This document shows, one piece after another, positions 5,985 through 43,901 of a DNA stretch of 64,000 nucleotides. The position numbers were made by a program, and so were the translations under genes. The notes under the pieces were generated by a model that saw only the letters and a list, made by a program, of their open reading frames with translations, did no database searches and was not told the origin of the DNA. The DNA comes from Minisyncoccota bacterium (GTDB lineage Bacteria; Patescibacteriota; Minisyncoccia; Phycocordibacterales; UBA9973). Each line of letters begins with the position of its first letter. The first letter of the stretch is position 1. The DNA lies in contig JAGOTH010000001.1 of the NCBI GenBank assembly GCA_018061865.1, positions 4,249 through 68,248 of the forward strand. The letters are read 5' to 3'.

Positions 5985-6908
5985 TTATTTGTTTAGATAT
6001 TTTCTAACAGCCAGAGTACTTGATAGAATTCCAAGGATTATTCCAAAGAAAAAGTTAACAAGGAAGATCCAGAACAGGTTTGCGGTGTAGTAATCAAACA
6101 AGTCAGTTCCTAAGAAATAAGACATCTTTGCTCCAAGCCAGAGAGTTATTGGAACGAATATAAGAATGGTAACGATAGAAGAAATCACTCCATACATTAT
6201 TCCCTGAACAACAAACGGACCTCGAATGTATAGGTTGTCAGCTCCCACAAGACGCATAATTCCAATTTCTTCTCTTGAGATATAGATCGCAAGTCTGATT
6301 GTGTTGTATGTAATTGCAACTGAAATAAGAACGAGTATCAAAGTTAAAATAACACCAAGCTTCTCTGCGCCATCAATGATTGAGTTCAATCTTTCTATAA
6401 CTTGCTTGTTTTGGTAGTAATTTATTTTTTCAATAATACTTGTTCCATTTGTTGTTAGAACTTTATCGCTCTCCAGATAAGTTGAGATTGATTCGTATTG
6501 AGAAGTTTCTTTTGCTTTTATGTTTATAGAAGCCCCTAGTGGGTTATCGTCTAATTCTTCAAGTGCCTGAAGAGTGAGGTAGTCGTCTTCATGTCTTAGT
6601 TTGAAAGAATCAAGAGCCTCTTCTGCAGAAATGTATCCAACGAGTTCCACTTCCGGAAGTTTTTCGATTTCAGTTTTTAAAGAAGTAATCTCTTCTTCTG
6701 GAGTTCCAGAAATGAAGTAGACAGTTATATCAACTTTATCTTTTATTTGTTCTAGAGAATTAAAAAGCGCCGCTCTCGAAATAACGATTGAAGTCAAAAC
6801 TGAAAGAGTAATGGTAACGGTCAAAAGAGAAGCTAGAGAGATAACTCCATTACGAACGAAACCAACTACCCCTGCCCTGATTATTCTTCTGAAGTGAAAT
6901 TTTTCCAT
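5985..6908 (-). CDS. ftsX: cell division permease FtsX
   Basis: 4-TM FtsX-like topology with large periplasmic loop; immediately downstream of ftsE. Confidence 0.8.
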   Translation of the reverse strand: MEKFHFRRIIRAGVVGFVRNGVISLASLLTVTITLSVLTSIVISRAALFNSLEQIKDKVDITVYFISGTPEEEITSLKTEIEKLPEVELVGYISAEEALDSFKLRHEDDYLTLQALEELDDNPLGASINIKAKETSQYESISTYLESDKVLTTNGTSIIEKINYYQNKQVIERLNSIIDGAEKLGVILTLILVLISVAITYNTIRLAIYISREEIGIMRLVGADNLYIRGPFVVQGIMYGVISSIVTILIFVPITLWLGAKMSYFLGTDLFDYYTANLFWIFLVNFFFGIILGILSSTLAVRKYLNK

Positions 6909-7044
6909 CCCGATTAGAAGCTGACGGTAATAATGTAACCGCTCATGCTTTTTGTTATTTTGTAATTTTTTTGTTTTATTGTTTTTGTCATCTTTTTTTG
7001 ATAATTACCTGCTTCTAACGGGACAAGTTTATTCTAATATTCTA

Positions 7045-7725
7045 CTACATCATTCGCTTCCCGTCCTTGTCATCTCGAACCACTCTGCCCTTCTCAAGTG
7101 TTATAACTCTTCGCCCAATAGATTCGATAACTCCTCTATTGTGAGTTGTAAGAATTACAGTTGTTCCAAGGTCATTAATTTTTTTCAAAATTTGAACAAC
7201 TTCATAGGTGTTAACAGGATCAAGGTTCCCTGTTGGCTCATCAGCAATCAGAATTTCCGGCTGATTAATAATGGCACGAGCAATAGCTAGACGCTGTTTT
7301 TCTCCACCAGAAAGCTGATGTGGAAAATGGTAAATCTTGTCAGAGAGATCAACAAGATCTAAAACATGAGGAACATCAGATTCTATTTCTTCATCACTTT
7401 TTCCCGCGGCCTCCATCGCAAAGGCTATATTTTCATAAGCTGTGAGGTTCGAAAGAAGACGAAAATCTTGGAAAACAACTCCAATCTTTCTTCTAAACTT
7501 AATCAAATCATTGTGTGATAGAGAGTGAATATCTGTTCCATTGAAAAGAACCTTCCCGTAGGTAGGTTTTTCTTCCGCCATAATTAATTTAATTAGAGTA
7601 GTCTTCCCGGCTCCAGAATGTCCAACAACAGAAACAAACTCTCTGTCTTCGACAGTCAAATTAACATCCTCAAGGGAAATTGATTTTGCGGGATAAATTT
7701 TTGAGACATCTTCAAAGGAAAGCAT
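7045..7725 (-). CDS. ftsE: cell division ATP-binding protein FtsE
   Basis: Walker A GHSGAGKTT, ABC signature LSGGEKQR, Walker B ILIADEPTGNLD; 226 aa. Confidence 0.85.
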   Translation of the reverse strand: MLSFEDVSKIYPAKSISLEDVNLTVEDREFVSVVGHSGAGKTTLIKLIMAEEKPTYGKVLFNGTDIHSLSHNDLIKFRRKIGVVFQDFRLLSNLTAYENIAFAMEAAGKSDEEIESDVPHVLDLVDLSDKIYHFPHQLSGGEKQRLAIARAIINQPEILIADEPTGNLDPVNTYEVVQILKKINDLGTTVILTTHNRGVIESIGRRVITLEKGRVVRDDKDGKRMM

Positions 7726-7827
7726 AGAATAGATTTGGGTGTTAGGTTACAGGGAATAGTGGGAATGCAGACAGATATTCATACGGATTTACTAAAGAAT
7801 TATAGCATATCCGAAAACCCCTCAAAG

Positions 7828-8712
7828 TTATCCTTTGTGATTCTTCATTTCTTCAATAAAAGGCTCCAATTCTCCCCCACTCATCACAGCATCAACATCA
7901 GAAGTCTCGTGTCCTGTGCGGTGATCTTTTACCATTTTGTATGGATGCAAGACATAAGAGCGGATTTGATTACCCCATTCTATATCAGTTGTTTTAGCTA
8001 TTTGCATACTTTCAACGAGAGAGAGTCTGTCCTCTTCTGCTTTCTTCCAAAGTTTTCCCGCAATGAGGGAAAGGGCTCGCTCCTTGTTTGCCTCTTGAGT
8101 TCTTTCTTCTGTAACATGCACAGATATTCCAGTCGGCTTGTGTGTTATACGAACAGCCGTTTCGCGTTTGTTTACATTTTGTCCACCAGGTCCTCCACCT
8201 CTGGCAAAATCTATTTCTAGATCATCCGATTTAAGTTCTGGCATCTCGGCTGGTTTTATTACAGGAAGAACTTCAACTAAAGAAAAAGATGTATTTCTTT
8301 TTCCTTTTGAATTAAATGGGGAAATTCTAACGAGACGATGAACTCCGTTTTCATGTTTCAATTCTCCATAAACCCCCTTTCCTTCAACATCCAAAGTTAT
8401 ATTTCTGTAACCTCCGTGATCGTTTTCACTTTTGTTTCGAATGGAAGAAGACCATCCCTTTCGATCAAAAAATCTGTAGTACATTTCTAGAAGCATTTTC
8501 GAAAAATCCTCCGCGTCGTCTCCTCCTGCTCCAGATAATATAGAAAGAACTGCTCCTCCTCGATCAAATTCTCCAAGCCCCTCCTTCTTGTCTTTCAGAT
8601 TTTGAAGCTCACGAACAATTGTTTGAGCCTTGTTCTTGTCGAGCCAAAAATCAGACCGTTGCATTTCGGCTTCTATTTCTTCAATTCTGTTTTTTATCTG
8701 TTCCTCCGTCAT
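7828..8712 (-). CDS. prfB: peptide chain release factor 2, short N-terminus, no programmed frameshift
   Basis: SPF motif ([15 protein letters not shown]), GGQ motif ([10 protein letters not shown]); in-frame TAA 9 nt upstream of the ATG and no upstream ORF in any frame. Confidence 0.85.
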
Positions 8713-11338: not shown

Positions 11339-11395
11339 AAATACACTTTACACTAAAAAGGGGTAATCAAAAACCACCACAAGGCGGTTTTTGAT

Positions 11396-11574
11396 ATGGC
11401 GCAGTCGACGGGAATCTCACATCGTCACAAGTTCCTCTTTGAAAACCTCTCGGTTTTCAATACTTTCCTCCACGGGGAAACGGAAGTTTCCCCGACCCCC
11501 TTCCCGTTCGAGCCCCTTTTCTGTACTAGAAACAAAAAGATGCCAAAAAATAATTTTGACATCTTTTTGTTTTG
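11396..11574 (-). repeat. ~180-bp tRNA-3'-end-associated element, copy A (downstream of tRNA-Asp)
   Basis: Terminator hairpin, then 65-nt core GGGGUCGGGGAAAC-UUCC-GUUUCCCCGUGGAGGAAAGUAUUGAAAACCGAGAGGUUUUCAAAG, then GUGAGA, then duplicate of the tRNA-Asp 3' end (UUCCCGUCGACUGCGCCA, with CCA) at 11397..11414, then a second terminator hairpin; paralogous to 39342..39528. Confidence 0.6.
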
Positions 11575-11648
11575 CGCAGTCGACGGGACTCGAACCCGCA
11601 ACCTCCCGCGTGACAGGCGGGTGCTCTAACCAGTTGAGCTACGACTGC
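11575..11648 (-). tRNA. tRNA-Asp(GUC)
   Basis: GCAGUCG UA GCUC AACUGGUUA GAGC A CCCGC CUGUCAC GCGGG AGGUU GCGGG UUCGAGU CCCGU CGACUGC G. Confidence 0.85.
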
Positions 11649-11964: not shown

Positions 11965-12035
11965 TTGCGGGGTCTGGAATCGCACCAGAGCCTCAAGGTT
12001 ATGAGCCTTGCGAGATACTTCTTCTCCACCCCGCT
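11965..12035 (-). tRNA. tRNA(CAU) with initiator-like features and non-canonical D- and T-loops (tRNA-fMet or pseudogene)
   Basis: AGCGGGG UG GAGA AGAAGUA UCUC G CAAGG CUCAUAA CCUUG AGGC UCUGG UGCGAUU CCAGA CCCCGCA A; unpaired 1:72 (A.A), A11:U24; but no GG in D-loop and G at position 55. Confidence 0.35.
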
Positions 12036-12121
12036 ATATAGAACCAAAAATGGTTGCTCGGAGAGTATAACAAAAAAGCTTGGATTTGCAAATATTCTAG
12101 AAAGGTATAGTGTAGATAAAA

Positions 12122-12502: not shown

Positions 12503-13147
12503 TTAAATATAATCAAACTCTCGGAAAGATCTCTCGAAATGAGTAAGGGCTTCTTTTGTTTCCGCATATGAAAGTTCGAACTTTGATCCTTCGTGGGCGA
12601 TTTTGTTTCGAACCAAGTGACCCTTCCAAGCATCCTGAACTGTTCGAAAATGTGCCGGAGATGCGTTCTTCAGCTTTTCTCCAAGAGTGTCTCCAATGAA
12701 CCCCTTCTCTTCAAGCATTTCTTCAAGCATCACGTCAGCTTCAATAATCGCAAGTCGTCTATCACTTTCTTTTATTGATTCTGATTCAGAAACAATTTTC
12801 TGCCACTGAGTAGACTTTGACGGAGCCATGGCCTTGTCGCGAGGAATATAGACCTTTAGTCTGTCAGCAAACTTTTTGTCTTCTTCCTTTCCGCGAATAT
12901 GAGAATAGATGATTACATAAATCAAAATAATTATGATTATTGTCGCAAGCACGATAAACCACCCAATCCCCGAACCACTACCAAAGAGTGCGTTTAGTAT
13001 TCCGTGCCAAATAAAATTAAGCAGTTGATACAATTTATAAAAAACATATTCGAGGTTTAGAAAAGTTGGGTCAGCAAAATTAATTCTTGATAAAAAAGGA
13101 ATCAAGATAAGGAGAGCTATTATGAGACCTAGGCTGGCTGCTGGCAT
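12503..13147 (-). CDS. membrane protein with C-terminal HEPN-like (Rx4H) motif
   Basis: Two N-terminal TM helices; C-terminal HLVRNKIAHEG (RNxxxH, HepT/HEPN-like); stop abuts gatA start (operon gatC-gatA-this). Confidence 0.35.
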   Translation of the reverse strand: MPAASLGLIIALLILIPFLSRINFADPTFLNLEYVFYKLYQLLNFIWHGILNALFGSGSGIGWFIVLATIIIIILIYVIIYSHIRGKEEDKKFADRLKVYIPRDKAMAPSKSTQWQKIVSESESIKESDRRLAIIEADVMLEEMLEEKGFIGDTLGEKLKNASPAHFRTVQDAWKGHLVRNKIAHEGSKFELSYAETKEALTHFERSFREFDYI

Positions 13148-30553: not shown

Positions 30554-30731
30554 AACTAAATTCTATTATTTATCATTATTTAACACAATTAAGCCTGCTT
30601 ATTGGGGAATAGAAATTATTTTTAAAATATGATAAAGTCTTTTTGTTTTAAGCCTTAGCTGACAGCTAACAGCTTGAAGCCAAAAGCTACCTGGAGCCGT
30701 GTCAGAGCTTGCCCTAAAAAGTTAATAAAAT

Positions 30732-32311: not shown

Positions 32312-32383
32312 TCTGCCCAAATAGGGCTTTAAGCACAAAAACCCACATAGCCCGCCTTTTTTCTAAAAGAGTATAATCAACTC

Positions 32384-32452
32384 ATGCAAATAGACGAGTT
32401 TTTGAGAAACTTTATATTAAACGCCAAATCAAAGGCGCAACATGTACTATAA
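32384..32452 (+). pseudogene. 5' fragment duplicate of the PNPOx-like gene
   Basis: atgcaaatagacgagtttttgagaaactttatattaaacgccaaatcaaaggc nearly identical to the first ~55 nt of 32800..33192 (MQIDEFLRNFILNAKSKA vs MEIDEFLRNFILRAKSKA), then stop. Confidence 0.45.
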
Positions 32453-32799
32453 ATTATTTTGTAACTATTTATAATATTTGATACTATTAAGAAAAATATA
32501 CCCTTATGAATGTAAGTAAAACTAATGTTATTTTAAAAAAATTAGCTAAAAAAAGAAAACCAACCTTACTTGATAAACCAAAACATACTAAGGCCGAGCA
32601 AGATTTCATACGAAATCTAAAAATTTTTAAGAACTCAAAAAATAAATAATTACCTATTTATGAGTTAATTAAAAAATTTAAATCATCTACACTAAAACCC
32701 GATATAAAATAATCGGGTTTTTAAATATCAATAGAGAAAATCTTTTTTTCAACCAAGGCTTAGACTCTCAAAAAACAAAAAAAGGACTATAATTAACCT

Positions 32800-33192
32800 A
32801 TGGAAATAGACGAGTTTTTGAGAAACTTTATATTGAGAGCCAAATCAAAGGCACTAGCTACATACGGACCAAACGGGATCAATGTTGTTCCCGTTTCTTC
32901 AATCAAGGTTGTAGACAATGAAATCTGGCTTATCAACTATTTCATGGATAAGACCCTACAGAATATAAAAGAAAACCCCGAAGTCTCTCTCGTCTGCTGG
33001 CTCGATATGATAGGTTTCCAGATCAAAGGTGAAATTGAATATTTAGAAAATGGAGATAAATTCGAAAAGGCCGTTAATTGGATAAAGGAAACACTCCCAG
33101 AAAGGGTGGTTCATGGGCTTTTAATCCTTAAACCAAAAGAGATTTTTGATGTTTCTCCGTCCAAAGACACCCGAGATACCTACAAGCCCTAA
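32800..33192 (+). CDS. pyridoxamine 5'-phosphate oxidase-like FMN-binding split-barrel protein
   Basis: ATYGPNGINVVPVS...NPEVSLVCW pattern of the PNPOx-like family; 130 aa. Confidence 0.55.
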   Translation: MEIDEFLRNFILRAKSKALATYGPNGINVVPVSSIKVVDNEIWLINYFMDKTLQNIKENPEVSLVCWLDMIGFQIKGEIEYLENGDKFEKAVNWIKETLPERVVHGLLILKPKEIFDVSPSKDTRDTYKP

Positions 33193-39083: not shown

Positions 39084-39267
39084 ATAGGTTAGTATGATAC
39101 AGTCAAAAACATATTTCAACCACCCTTAGCCCCGACGCCCCGCTTTAGCGGGGGTACGGGGTCCCGACAAGAAAAAACTTCGTCGGGACTCAGTTTCCTC
39201 CATAGGCGGACAGGGATTAGAGCATAGATATAAAATTGGTTAAGATAGGTAGTAGTGTAAAAAATAA

Positions 39268-39341
39268 CCACCCTTAGCTCAGTTGGTTAGAGCACAGAGC
39301 TTATACCTCTGGGGTCCTTGGTTCGAATCCAAGAGGGTGGA
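39268..39341 (+). tRNA. tRNA-Ile(UAU)
   Basis: CCACCCU UA GCUC AGUUGGUUA GAGC A CAGAG CUUAUAC CUCUG GGGUC CUUGG UUCGAAU CCAAG AGGGUGG A; anticodon UAU. Confidence 0.8.
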
Positions 39342-39528
39342 CATTATAAAAAACTCAAGACATATTTGTTTTGAGTTTTTTATAATTTTACTTTGAATTG
39401 GATTCGAACGGGAAAGGGGTCGGGAAAACGGGAGTTTTCCCGTGGAGGAAAGTATTGAAAACCGAGAGGTTTTCAAAAATTACGAACAGAATGTGAGTAA
39501 TTTGTGAGACTCCAAGAGGGTGGACATT
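39342..39528 (+). repeat. ~185-bp tRNA-3'-end-associated element, copy B (downstream of tRNA-Ile)
   Basis: Terminator hairpin, TATAAT, 65-nt core GGGGUCGGGAAAAC-GGGA-GUUUUCCCGUGGAGGAAAGUAUUGAAAACCGAGAGGUUUUCAAA, GUGAGA, 17-nt duplicate of the tRNA-Ile 3' end plus flank (ccaagagggtggacatt at 39329..39345 and 39512..39528), second terminator. Confidence 0.6.
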
Positions 39529-39566
39529 GAGTCTCTAATCAAAAAACCGCTTTCGCGGTTTTTTGA

Positions 39567-41495
39567 TTAATCTACTATATCTATCGCCTCTTTACCCTCT
39601 TCTTTTTTCTTCGGTTTAATTCCGAAAGTCATTATCAATTTATTGTATTCGTCTTGTTCTAGAGTTTCTACCTCAAGAAGTTTCTTTGCAATAGCATCGA
39701 GAACTTTTCTGTTTTCTTTTATTGTCTTTCTGGCAAGCTCAAGAGAATCATTCATTATCTTTTTTACTTCTCTATCTATAACGGCAGACATTTCTTCAGA
39801 ATAATCTTTTCCTCCATCTACATATCCGTGGATTATTTTTCCTCCGTCACTCTCCAGTGCCACAGGACCAATTGCATCACTCATTCCCCATCTGGTCACC
39901 ATAGCTCGGGCAAGAGAGGTTGAAACTTGGAGATCGTTTGATGGGCCAGTTGTAACATCACCGAAAATTAACTCTTCTGCAACATATCCTCCAAGAGACA
40001 TCGCAATATCATCTAGAAATTCTTTTTTAGATTGAAGTCTTCTGTCTTCAACTGGAAGCTTGAGTGTATATCCTCCAGCACGTCCACGAGCAACAATAGA
40101 AACTTTGTGAACTGGATCAGCGTTCGGCAGAATTGAAGCAAGCACTGCGTGTCCCGCTTCGTGATACGCCGTGATTTCTTTTTCCTTTTTAATCATCAGA
40201 TGACTTTTTCTAACCGGACCGAGCATTACCTTTTCAATAGATTTCAAAAGATCGTTTTGAGAAACTGTTTTTCTGTCTTCACGAGCGGCAAGAATTGCTC
40301 CTTCGTTCATAAGAGAATATAAATCAGCACCAGAAAATCCTGGAGTTCTCTCAGCGACAACTTTCAAATCAACATCACCGGCAAAAGGTTTCTTTCGAGC
40401 ATGAATTGTAAGAATGTCTTCTCTGTCTCGACGATCTGGAAGATCAAGGATTACTCGACGGTCAAATCTTCCTGGTCGAAGAAGTGCTGGATCAAGAACA
40501 TCACTTCTGTTTGTCGCCGCCATAACAATAACTTTCTCGTTTGGCTCGAATCCATCCATCTCAACGAGTATCTGGTTTAGAGTTTGTTCTCTTTCATCGT
40601 TTCCTCCACCAATTCCACTTCCTCTCACTCGTCCAACAGCATCTATCTCATCAATGAAAACGATTGCGGGAGAGGCTTTCTTGGCCATCTGGAACAAGTC
40701 TCTCACTCGAGACGCTCCCACTCCAACAAACATTTCTACGAATTCACTTCCTGACAAGTGGAAGAACGGAACACCCGCTTCTCCCGCCACCGCTCGAGCA
40801 AGTAAAGTTTTTCCAGTTCCTGGAGCTCCAGTTAGAATCACTCCTTTTGGAATACGAGCTCCAATATCAATAAATTTTTTCGGATTTTTCAAAAAATCTA
40901 CAATTTCTTTCAATTCTTCTTTTGCCTCTCTTGCACCGGCGACATCTTTGAAAGTAACTCGATTATTTTTGTCATTTGGATTTGTTATTCGAGCACGAGA
41001 TTGTCCAAAGTTAAAAGCCTGCATTCCAGCTCCTTTAGCTTGTCGGGCGATAAACCAGAAAAAGAAAACCAAGAAAAGAATTGGAATAAGAATTGGAAGT
41101 AGATTGAGTATCCAGTATCCAACACCTGATTCACTTTTTATTCCAACCTCAACTAGAGACAACTTTTCATCCGTTACTCCTAGATTTTTCAAAGACTCAA
41201 GAACTCCGCTCTCTGCTTCTTTCTTGCTCTCTTGAAGAGATCCGTCCATTAGCTCAATAGAAATCTTTTCTCCTTCAACTTCTACCTTCTTCACTTGGCC
41301 GAGATTTATTTCAGACGCTAGAGTAGAGAGAGGTATTTCTGTCTTTTCCACCTTGTCCCCTGTGATTGTGTAAATAGCCGAAAGAGCCATAAAAATAAGA
41401 ACAATAAATGTGAAGTGAGTGAAAAAGGAAGGTGTTTTGTTATTGTTTCCTCCCTTTTTCCCCATTTTTTTGTTTTTCTTTAAGAAGTTATCCAT
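39567..41495 (-). CDS. ftsH: ATP-dependent zinc metalloprotease FtsH
   Basis: N-terminal TMs, AAA Walker [17 protein letters not shown] zinc motif; 642 aa. Confidence 0.9.
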
Positions 41496-42890: not shown

Positions 42891-43343
42891 GTGTTAAGAA
42901 AAACTAAAACATTGAAAAAACAAAGGTATCGCAAGGAAGTGGTAGACAGAATTCTCTGGGAAAATACAATTTATTGGGAAAAGTTTTTTAAAGACTACGC
43001 AACAAGAACAGGAAATAAATTTTTCATTCCTAAAAAAAGAAGAAATGGGGATCTAACAATGCTTTGTCCTATTCACAAAGAGCGAACACCATCTCTTAGA
43101 GTGAATGCTAGAACAAATATTTGTAAATGCTTTGGTTGTGGGTTTAGTGGGAACTTCCTTACTTTATTACAAAGAGTATATGATATTTCTTTCATTGAAG
43201 CTTTAGAGATGGCTTTCAAAATGAAAGATTTTATAAATGAGGATTTCAATCCTCTACAGTTAAAAATAACTTTCCACCGAGACTTACCAGCCATAACTTC
43301 TTCTTATCGCGAAAACGAAGAATCTGATGGTCTGCCTTTTTAA
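42891..43343 (+). CDS. CHC2 zinc-finger (primase-type) domain protein
   Basis: CPIHKERTPSLRVNARTNICKCFGCGFSGN matches the DnaG/TraC CHC2 zinc-binding domain; no TOPRIM follows; terminator AATCCCGAAGTTCGGGATTTTTT. Confidence 0.6.
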   Translation: MLRKTKTLKKQRYRKEVVDRILWENTIYWEKFFKDYATRTGNKFFIPKKRRNGDLTMLCPIHKERTPSLRVNARTNICKCFGCGFSGNFLTLLQRVYDISFIEALEMAFKMKDFINEDFNPLQLKITFHRDLPAITSSYRENEESDGLPF

Positions 43344-43535
43344 TCCCGAAGTTCGGGATTTTTTATTTAAATAAAAAGGCCCGCCTCTTTCAAGGCGAGC
43401 TTTACAGTTACTGCGAATTCCTAAGCCATTTCCCTATTGCTAGCCCACAGGGATGGATTACTATATCCAGAAACCTCTGAATACTTTGGAAACAGTAGAA
43501 ACAATATAGATTAAATTAACAAAAATGCAAGGAGG

Positions 43536-43775
43536 TTATGTGATGTGTTTTTTGGTGAAGGCGTGGCCGGAAGAAGATTTTAGATATTTTTCAAAATCAT
43601 AAGCTTTATACTTATCTAAAAAAGCACAATACCATATTAATTTAAATGGGGCTTTGCTTTTATTTGATTTGGTCTCAAGATTATTATGTTCGGCAATTCT
43701 GTTTTTTAAATCTTTTGTAATGCCAATATATCTTGAGTCATCTTTGAGGCTCTTTAATATGTAAACATAGTACAT
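43536..43775 (-). CDS. GIY-YIG nuclease family protein (YhbQ-like)
   Basis: YYVYILKSLKDDSRYIGITKDLKNRIAEHN; start at internal MYYVY; directly 3' of ssrA. Confidence 0.75.
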   Translation of the reverse strand: MYYVYILKSLKDDSRYIGITKDLKNRIAEHNNLETKSNKSKAPFKLIWYCAFLDKYKAYDFEKYLKSSSGHAFTKKHIT

Positions 43776-43901
43776 ATGAATAATTATACCCCACTCCGCC
43801 AAGGCTTCGCGGGGTCCACCACTTCAAACTTTACAAGTTTTCGCGTGCTTCGCACCGCGAAACTAAAACACTCAACCTTTAAGTTGAGTGTTTTAGTGAA
43901 G

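Follow-up and report, generated by a model that had tools for sequence, protein, structure and literature searches.

The module between tRNA-Ile(UAU) and ftsH

We have analyzed a stretch of 64,000 nucleotides (nt) from a Minisyncoccota bacterium (contig JAGOTH010000001.1, positions 4,249 to 68,248 of the forward strand), referred to here as the window. Between a tRNA-Ile(UAU) gene and the convergent gene ftsH there is a module of about 190 bases, which we call copy B. It contains a G+C-rich core followed by a second copy of the tRNA 3' end, and a related module, copy A, lies behind tRNA-Asp on the opposite strand. The parts of copy B and the two flanking genes are as follows.

39268..39341, plus strand: tRNA-Ile(UAU), the gene whose 3' part is copied (ARAGORN, and Rfam RF00005 at 69 bits)
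39328..39345, plus strand: direct repeat, copy 1, the region of tRNA nt 60-76 and 4 nt of trailer; exact repeat of 39511-39528
39343..39386, plus strand: first terminator (term1), a terminator-like, A/T-rich palindrome of 44 nt; inverted repeat 39343-58 / 39371-86 (terminator scan)
39357..39386, plus strand: promoter-like AAGACA-18-TATAAT inside term1 (promoter scan); TATAAT is 39381-39386
39398..39409, plus strand: antisense segment TTGGATTCGAAC, exact reverse complement of tRNA 39321-39332 (G53 to nt 64)
39404..39482, plus strand: conserved RNA core, 97.5 bits with covariance model (CM) R1, 91% identity to copy A, both hairpins covarying
39410-20, plus strand: J1 of the core, GGGAAAGGGGT
39421-42, plus strand: hairpin 1 of the core, GGGA loop
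39443-54, plus strand: J2 of the core, TGGAGGAAAGTA
39455-76, plus strand: hairpin 2 of the core, GAGA loop, then A-rich J3
39477..39503, plus strand: variable linker hairpin AAATTAC...GTAATTT, different in sequence and length in every copy
39504..39510, plus strand: GTGAGAC/T motif (GTGAGAC in copy B), which joins the core to the tRNA copy
39511..39528, plus strand: tRNA 3' end and trailer, copy 2 (the 'mimic'), exact 18-nt repeat
39536..39569, plus strand: second intrinsic terminator (term2), inverted repeat 39536-50 / 39555-69, and predicted fold
39567-41495, minus strand: ftsH, convergent gene (Pfam), its stop codon overlapped by term2

Every part that a preliminary description of this DNA had listed for copy B is present, in place or a few bases away, though two of the lengths have to be revised. 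The direct repeat of the tRNA end, given as 17 bp, measures 18 nt (TCCAAGAGGGTGGACATT, 39328-39345 and 39511-39528). The repeat spans the 3' strands of the T-stem and of the acceptor stem, followed by the discriminator base and 4 bases of trailer. The conserved core was put at 65 nt; it extends over 74 nt at 91% identity between the two copies and over 79 nt by the CM. The GTGAGAC/T motif resembles a T-loop with nt 55-56 changed. As GTGAGAT/C it is invariant in copies A and B and at four loci of other genomes, L021, L024, L027 and L004. Copy A has the same order of parts.

11366..11573, minus strand: copy A, behind tRNA-Asp (11575-11648)
11572-11530, minus strand: term1 of copy A
11516-11506, minus strand: antisense segment GGGGCTCGAAC, one mismatch to the reverse complement of tRNA-Asp
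11511-11433, minus strand: core, CM 95.9 bits
11420-11414, minus strand: GTGAGAT
11413-11399, minus strand: tRNA-end copy of 15 nt; CA comes next, hence it reads GCCA
11395-11366, minus strand: term2 of copy A

The 91% identity of the two cores extends over 39404-39477 and 11438-11511. With the core CM they score 97.5 bits (B) and 95.9 bits (A) vs at most 13.9 bits for the best other site in the 64 kb, and the CM scan finds exactly two copies of the module in the window. A chance origin of the two cores is ruled out. That the repeats might be assembly artefacts, a possibility named in the preliminary description, is contradicted by four other, independent assemblies of the same species, in which the 483-nt spacer between ftsH and mscL is identical. 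Two Logan contigs break off inside the element, as a repeat would be expected to cause. The module accounts for contig breaks in assemblies of the candidate phyla radiation (CPR).

Copies behind other tRNA genes

Further copies come from pattern scans of species-representative genomes and of Joint Genome Institute (JGI) metagenomes; six of the seven matches in the species-representative genomes were due to chance. The preliminary description had considered that no further copies might exist anywhere, and this did not hold, since more true copies lie behind other tRNAs elsewhere. The module is found behind six tRNA species (Ile, Asp, Ala, Asn, Thr and Glu). Its host contigs belong to Paceibacterota (CPR), together with one metagenome-assembled genome (MAG) labelled Gammaproteobacteria. 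The nearest named FtsH relatives are likewise from Paceibacterota/Parcubacteria (CPR), with 99% identity within the species and at most 76% for the next. All eight tRNA-linked copies, the window's two included, lie 3' of the tRNA in the same orientation. The loci in other genomes are listed here with their antisense segments.

L001/L017: tRNA-Asp; close relative of the window species, neighbouring VanY-type protein 87% identical; in L017, a relative of copy A, an 11-nt antisense segment GGGACTCGAAC, perfect against its own tRNA
L027: tRNA-Asp; direct repeat of 30 nt, including 13 nt of trailer; antisense match of 8 nt
L021: tRNA-Ala; no terminator between tRNA and core, next tRNA 16 nt past the copy
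L024: tRNA-Asn; antisense match of 8 nt
L026: tRNA-Thr; antisense segment GCGGGATTGAAC, 11 of 12 matching
L004: tRNA-Glu; the MAG labelled Gammaproteobacteria; antisense segment GGGAATCGAAC, perfect over 11 nt

The antisense segment was missing from the preliminary description. In copy B, TTGGATTCGAAC covers the T-loop and the 3' strand of the T-stem, and its 5' part pairs with the start of the 3' tRNA copy (the P1 helix). Together with the tRNA-end copy it brackets the core by an inverted pair of tRNA-derived segments. In L026 the segment even tracks the unusual TTCAATT T-loop of that tRNA. The stretch between term1 and the antisense segment resembles a decayed reverse complement of the remaining tRNA end, most clearly in L024, L027 and L026. 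We can write the layout of each locus as a - T - a' - core - a - T2, where a stands for the tRNA from T-loop to end with part of the trailer, T for a terminator palindrome and a' for a in reverse complement, partly decayed in older copies. The alternative that the antisense segment is a sense T-stem and T-loop, with the core in a minihelix, fits much worse; the reverse complement is perfect in L004 and copy B and matches at 11/12 in L026.

At every locus the flanks match the local tRNA, and the core is common to all loci. Apart from the divergent L026 and the truncated L017, the core leads through GTGAGAT/C into a copy of the local tRNA from nt 57-60. In all copies the match to the tRNA sets in directly after TTCGA. 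The same core, six tRNA species and locally matching flanks fit the independent insertion next to different tRNAs that the preliminary description favored. Its proposal of a duplication at the DNA level is borne out as well, because the repeats take in trailer bases here, 13 nt of trailer in L027 and a whole terminator in the class-3 locus L041. An ordinary target-site duplication of fixed length does not describe them, since the repeats vary from 14 to 30 nt among class-1 copies (with antisense segments of 8-12 nt) and reach 66 nt in L041, and an inverted copy is also present.

Two loci are rearranged. In the sister species, the copy in L017 ends after hairpin 2, and the linker, tRNA copy and term2 are replaced by two genes. 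These lie at 6370-7913 and are of the HAD family and the endonuclease/exonuclease/phosphatase (EEP) family, with breakpoints right after hairpin 2 and right after term2. L026 holds three core copies within 3 kb; the two extra ones are diverged, with a 3' part in antisense to the beginning of a small open reading frame (ORF) fragment that is duplicated.

L041 shows the layout in a near-pristine form with a different core (class-3). Behind its tRNA-Ile(UAU) there is a 66-nt direct repeat of 98% identity, which starts at C56 and takes in the rest of the tRNA and the complete terminator. Its two copies enclose the reverse complement of nt 54-76, into which a small hairpin is inserted, and then an unrelated structured core (12537-12819, AGGCGCAG...GAGCC...GTCGCGAAAAAT...). 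In the RNA fold the tRNA-derived helix forms the closing stem (z = -8.1). The second core recurs, as older and decayed units, behind the same tRNA in L031, L032, L034 and L035/36; in L032 several stand in succession, and most units end in GTGACGACA. Because two unrelated cores share one layout, the layout is a property of the process and not of one core.

The tRNA-Ile(UAU) site is empty, with a terminator only, in L037 and L039, and the window's tRNA-Ile, identical in sequence to that of L034, is followed by the first core. The site has thus been filled independently, which argues for insertion events. We also observe that in L039 (about 11985-12090) tRNA-Ile(UAU) is flanked directly by an inverted repeat, GATTCCAAA / TTTGGAATC, which looks like a processing-stem arrangement.

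We annotated 36 neighbouring ORFs of the window and four other loci with Pfam and used precomputed Pfam tables of 12 loci. The neighbours are mostly housekeeping genes (FtsH, MscL, RecG, GatA, LigA, SecY, pilus genes, release factor, VanY), and several have no family match. The sole recombinase seen, of the serine type, lies beside tRNA-Ser genes in L035/L036, at a distance of about 7 kb from the tRNA-Ile element. A phage origin was also considered; scans of viral contigs gave chance ribosome-binding-site matches only.

These data bear on whether the module could be the remnant or satellite of a tRNA-targeting integrative element, in which a tyrosine integrase crossing over in the T-loop would have left the direct copies as attL and attR, and the piece between them would be mobilised in trans, like a cis-mobilizable element (CIME). 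The block of identity runs from the T-loop through the tRNA end into the trailer, as in attachment (att) sites of the T-loop class, and the variable repeat length and the 66-nt repeat of L041 would fit. However, Pfam finds no integrase beside any of the eight class-1 loci, the class-2 loci or L041. Just 150-190 bp lie between the repeats in every case, with two unrelated cores, and one core with six tRNA ends is unexplained by an integrase-specific attP. Moreover, the overlap differs at the right junction (GTGAGAY vs GTTCGAR), and the interior covaries in the way of an RNA. We therefore consider this origin improbable.

The core as a folded RNA

The core is an RNA domain of about 80 nt, in which invariant strands rich in purines connect two covarying hairpins. 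The connecting strands GGGAAGGGGGU, UGGAGGAAAGUAU and AAAGAG are near-invariant, as is GUGAGAU, and the hairpin loops are mainly of the GNRA type. Compensatory changes between copies occur in both hairpin 1 (CGGGGAAAC/GUUUCCCCG) and hairpin 2 (UGAAAACC/GGUUUUCA). In an alignment of 11 sequences, base pairing is found in 97.1% of the cells for 16 pairs, five of which show double changes. The covariation score is 0.225 vs 0.133 in shuffles, none of 500 shuffles and no slid register reaches this value, and pairing falls to at most 68% when the register of the 3' partner is slid. L004 has hairpin 1 replaced wholesale (GAGAAACC/GGUUUCUC) and hairpin 2 extended. In L026 the connectivity of hairpin 1 is permuted, its two strands enclosing J2 and hairpin 2, which suggests that the core is a self-contained domain. 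When the stems are read by hand, three pairs are not Watson-Crick, all of them G-U on the tRNA strand and none A-C. Since they would be A-C on the other strand, the RNA is read in the direction of the tRNA.

The tRNA-derived segments close this fold. Minimum-energy folds contain a helix between antisense segment and tRNA copy of 13 bp in L024, 12 bp in L027 and 8 bp in L004, and it is also present in copy A. In copy B it has 5 bp and is absent from the predicted minimum-energy fold; here the tail is identical to the tRNA, whereas the matching part of a' has decayed. The preliminary description took the 3' end for an acceptor mimic. This does not agree with the folds, where only the 3' strand exists; the antisense segment upstream takes up its beginning in a helix, leaving the final 5-9 nt free.

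With such a fold in hand, it is hardly credible that the modules are decayed tandem tRNA duplications (pseudo-tRNA fragments), products of chance or assembly artefacts. Partial 5' copies upstream of tRNA-Ile, tRNA-Asp and tRNA-Ser do indicate that this lineage tolerates duplications of tRNA fragments. But a core that is not derived from tRNA is common, at 91% identity, to loci 28 kb apart and occurs in other genomes. An inverted copy and covarying hairpins are not expected from decay, the sequence is identical in independent assemblies and the CM scores are far over background. This explanation is effectively refuted already.

Four permissive scans (E<=10) against Rfam 15 gave no family match to the module. 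No ribozyme or riboswitch family in Rfam 15 comes near its gathering score, the best being PreQ1 with 12.9 bits vs a threshold of 39. The best match overall is the ylbH leader RF00516 (23.8 bits in the window and 30.4 bits in L004, gathering score 50). It resembles the module in having a terminator hairpin followed by purine-rich AGGAGAAA/GGGGAAA-type segments. However, the match is below threshold, the aligned pairs are not the covarying hairpins and the module has no ylbH gene context.

Several other identities were tried and rejected. A small ORF (GGAGGA and TTG, giving MKTERFSK...) loses its frame in L021 and L027, where the hairpin-2 loop is 1 nt shorter, and L004 has no start codon. J2 is like the conserved GAGGAAAGUCC of RNase P RNA, but there is no partner strand for that helix and no Rfam RNase P match. 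A T-box or other tRNA-sensing leader has no Rfam match, the UGGA shows no covariation with the discriminator base, and behind several copies no gene follows. Hammerhead and other known ribozymes do not fit the junction strands, and cmscan finds nothing at E<=10. The tandem G-A pairs of TCGAAC/GTGAGA fit a K-turn or box C/D motif, but there is no canonical stem, and L024 and L027 lose the flanking pairs. We also note that TTTCCTCCA (39194-39202, in the pseudo-half upstream of tRNA-Ile) is perfectly complementary to TGGAGGAAA of J2 (39443-39451). As a general feature, pairing of J2 with a hairpin upstream of the tRNA was discarded, since it is significant in copy B only (p ~0.003) and not in copy A, L021 or others.

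The preliminary description suggested that the core may be transcribed as an RNA of its own, about 150 nt long. An RNA product is plausible, since the hairpins covary, the G-U pairs fit the tRNA strand only and terminators follow, but a promoter of its own is confined to copy B. There the TATAAT (39381-39386) noticed after the first terminator does exist, with a -35-like AAGACA 18 nt upstream (10/12 match). In copy A the promoter scan finds no promoter-like site on the element strand between terminator and core, and by eye the other copies have no convincing -35/-10 pair. Because L021 has no term1 and copy A no promoter, read-through from the tRNA promoter is the common denominator, and judging from the sequences it appears at least as likely as initiation at a separate promoter. 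The module would thus be transcribed with the tRNA or just after it, from the promoter-like site in copy B and by read-through elsewhere, and transcription would stop at T2. Another promoter-like site, CGGACA-18-TAAAAT, lies in the window at 39207-39236, after the pseudo 5' half and ahead of tRNA-Ile. The -35 of this site lies within the motif GGCGGACAGGG, which is conserved ahead of tRNA-Ala in L021 as well.

Just upstream of ftsH in L032/L033 (L032 9790-9990), L034 (9810-9990) and L035/L036 (9700-9900) there is a variant core, in which J2 is expanded (GUAGAGGAGAGCAGUGAAACGU) and hairpin 2 reads UGAGAACC/GGUUCUCA. It is followed by a long terminator-like hairpin. These four loci come from at least three genomes and show compensatory changes. 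In L032 and L034 the loop of the terminator-like hairpin has a complement in a 5' segment, and the sequences differ between the two genomes. It is possible that the variant is a leader or attenuator for ftsH in that clade. The core is thus a more general RNA domain, and the tRNA-linked form is one deployment of it.

These relatives speak for a host functional RNA without mobility, such as a stable 3'-trailer small RNA (sRNA), a riboswitch-like leader or a small ribozyme, in which the closing helix would co-evolve with the adjacent tRNA and gene conversion would keep the cores alike within a genome. The covariation and invariant junction strands are in line with it, as are the rearranged connectivity in L026, which is known from small ribozymes and aptamers, and a tail that stays identical to the tRNA while a' decays. 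So are the related core ahead of a terminator-like hairpin upstream of ftsH (L032, L034, L035, L036) and the copies that directly precede genes on the same strand (VanY in A, alr in L026, HAD in L017). However, no gene is consistently regulated, since copies B, L024 and L027 face convergent genes and a tRNA follows L021. The tRNA-Ile(UAU) site is empty in some genomes and holds either this core or another one in others, the repeats take in trailer and in L041 the whole terminator, which indicates events at the DNA level, and no Rfam ribozyme or riboswitch matches even at E<=10. We regard a host RNA without mobility as an unlikely explanation.

Proposed insertion at tRNA 3' ends and comparison with known systems

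We tentatively favor a protein-less insertion module that is aimed at tRNA 3' ends and expresses a structured RNA. Each insertion would add about 170-190 bp, the duplicated tRNA end included, directly 3' of a tRNA gene. New copies may arise by a copy-choice or template-switch event at two palindromes, the terminator and the TTCGAA of the T-loop. In such an event a' and a would be re-templated from the target, and the core would be carried in through the universal microhomology of the T-loop. The order direct-inverted-direct with palindromic junctions would be explained, because two template switches at quasi-palindromes produce this order. Alternatively, a trans-acting enzyme might act on a folded single strand, as at CTX-phi or attC sites. 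The RNA fold would be kept either for the spread of the element or for use of the RNA by the host.

A bolder version of the insertion module is a mobile RNA-bearing element with the T-loop as its landing site, which re-templates both target strands into a closing helix around a conserved core. We think this unlikely. If it were so, a new ribozyme would be one possibility for the core. It could also be the rod-like centre of a small circle, an intermediate composed of a+T+a'+core (about 217 nt in L041), and at least two unrelated cores would share the same route.

Several points weigh against the protein-less insertion module. The template-switch route explains the triplicated flanks, but not the constant core at their centre. 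No transposase, integrase, reverse transcriptase or RNA-guided nuclease is found by Pfam in the 36 neighbouring ORFs; with no recombinase-type gene among the scanned neighbours, no enzyme can be named. About 14 copies of the first core were available, which is a small sample. Conservation of the core upstream of ftsH is more suggestive of a function for the host than of selfish spread. In copy B the tail has been kept identical while a' decays, and at the level of sequence this suggests selection on the RNA. It also suggests that the free acceptor-strand tail of copy B matters; the 5' strand of the tRNA and the upstream 5' pseudo-half are candidate partners.

Some other features of the window and its relatives may be recorded here. 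At 63321-64000, running off the end of the window, two repeats of 12 nt (TTGTTTTTCACA) and 13 nt (TTGTCTAAAGACA) alternate with 9-nt spacers and a 43-nt period. The arrays of TIGR-Tas systems, reported from Parcubacteria, have the same layout (PMC12045711). The window itself contains no Tas gene. Exact partial copies of their own 5' end precede tRNA-Ile (13 nt; 39118-39224), tRNA-Asp (11 nt; 11777-11690, minus strand) and tRNA-Ser (16 nt; 30693-30708), and the pattern recurs in L017, L021 and L026. Those of Ile and Asp extend as a pseudo 5' half with inserted hairpins, and the Ile pseudo-half, like L021, has TCC(T/G)CC-NNN-GGCGGA in place of the D-loop G18G19. Among contigs from the same species as the window, some have a 78-residue GIY-YIG ORF called between a DnaG-like gene and tmRNA/smpB, near window 43340-43900 (L009 712-948 and L011 724-960), and others do not (L008 and L012). 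A GIY-YIG gene is at a comparable position in L031 and L041. ARAGORN predicts a tRNA-Ser with the anticodon ACU beside tRNA-Ser(GCU) in L034 (20797-20884) and L036 (21133-21222). This anticodon is unusual for bacteria, and the tRNA-Ser(ACU) of L036 has a gene for a large serine recombinase as its neighbour. Finally, window 32365-32436 and 32781-32852 are a 72-nt direct repeat of 88% identity, 416 nt apart and with TATAAT and ATG, which may be the duplicated start of two adjacent small genes.

Full-text searches of the literature found no description of an element like the module. Besides the ylbH leader, four kinds of DNA element or guide system and one group of sRNAs are comparable in part. 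The first are the tRNA-targeting integrative elements. T-loop-class att sites, reportedly described by Williams in 2002, have an identity block from the T-loop through the tRNA end, and CIMEs are said, after Pavlovic and Bellanger, to be derivatives of such elements without an integrase. The module is like both in sitting at a tRNA 3' end, in a repeat that reaches from the T-loop past the tRNA end and in leaving the tRNA intact. Unlike them, it has no integrase nearby, about 150-190 bp between the repeats, an extra inverted copy of the tRNA end, a covarying RNA domain as its interior and one core for six tRNA ends. The crossover overlap is not identical (left GTTCGAA, right GTGAGAC), and identity starts at nt 59/60. 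The module thus fails the defining tests of tRNA-targeting integrative elements, which are an integrase, an identical overlap and one tRNA per core.

Tandem inversion duplications and inverted triplications, which the Roth laboratory is said to have found in Salmonella to arise via template switching at quasi-palindromes, share the order direct-inverted-direct. As in these, the junctions of the module lie at palindromes, the terminator and the T-loop TTCGAA; L041 is nearly perfect, and B, A, L024 and L027 are decayed versions. However, the module is tens of bases in size and not kilobases, and the second junction holds a conserved foreign core of 80-110 nt, which cannot be created by template switching within one locus. 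Recombination sites that act as folded single strands are known from the CTX-phi attP(+) hairpin and from the attC sites of integrons. The module likewise has two inverted target-like copies about 90-130 nt apart, foldable into a duplex that mimics the target and has a mismatched centre. In contrast to these sites, its target is the T-arm and acceptor region of a tRNA, its loop is a conserved domain and its G-U pairs and GNRA-type loops suggest RNA; the link to Xer or IntI is one of analogy.

Guide RNAs are the next comparison. Omega RNA (IS200/IS605), bridge RNA (IS110) and tigRNA (TIGR) also combine a scaffold with a locus-specific segment and have complementarity to both DNA strands. The module could accordingly be a guide for an RNA-guided DNA-binding protein or recombinase encoded elsewhere. 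In a form like TnpB and omega RNA, the core would be the 5' scaffold, tRNA nt 59-76 the 3' guide and the TTCGA of the T-loop the 5' adjacent motif; alternatively, sense and antisense guides would address both strands, as in bridge-RNA or TIGR-like systems. The order of scaffold, variable segment and terminator would fit a guide, tRNA identity begins right after TTCGA in all copies, one RNA is complementary to both strands of a contiguous target and the same genome has another dual-guide system, the TIGR-like array at 63321-64000. However, by Pfam no tnpB, iscB, IS110 or tas lies beside any copy in the scanned neighbourhoods. The tnpB comparison gives ftsH, mscL, VanY, alr, HAD and tRNAs as neighbours with no adjacent tnpB, and no IS110 DEDD/Tnp recombinase gene stands beside the module at any scanned locus. 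The supposed guide has its seed end paired with the antisense segment at the RNA's own 5' end and would be blocked by it. It would be aimed at an essential tRNA gene that is 170 bp away, and the omega-RNA models of Rfam give no match at E<=10. Bridge RNA has two internal loops with target and donor guides around a 2-nt core. The module has no second guide pair of that style; its one sense and one antisense segment overlap by 5-10 nt and are mutually paired. Unlike in all of these systems, there is no adjacent effector gene, the two specific segments pair together and Rfam has no match. We judge a guide function to be quite improbable.

The tRNA-derived or tRNA-like sRNAs (3'ETS-leuZ, YrlA/Y RNA and the tRNA-like domain of tmRNA) share with the module its position in a tRNA 3' trailer and a partly tRNA-like sequence; our comparison draws in part on PMC4201824. 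Unlike these, the module copies only the 3' strand of one neighbouring tRNA, has a different conserved core and is without an acceptor 5' strand, a true T-loop and a D-arm. No complement of the acceptor 3' strand is found inside the RNA, and neither ARAGORN nor the Rfam tRNA and tmRNA models call the module. It is not tRNA-like in the structural sense of tmRNA, YrlA or viral tRNA-like structures, for which a paired acceptor stem and a T-arm with T-loop would be expected.

If the module is a host RNA, it represents a new structured RNA class, with no Rfam match, a built-in copy of a specific tRNA acceptor strand and relatives in ftsH leaders. If it is mobile, it indicates an undescribed way to insert DNA at a universal sequence, the T-loop, and this would be of interest for the evolution of the very small CPR genomes and as a possible targeting principle. 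Either way, our analysis provides a concrete RNA model that can be searched with. tRNA genes are classic landing sites of integrating elements, and in every case known to us a recombinase does the work; it is against this background that a module with its own copies of both strands of the tRNA end should be seen.

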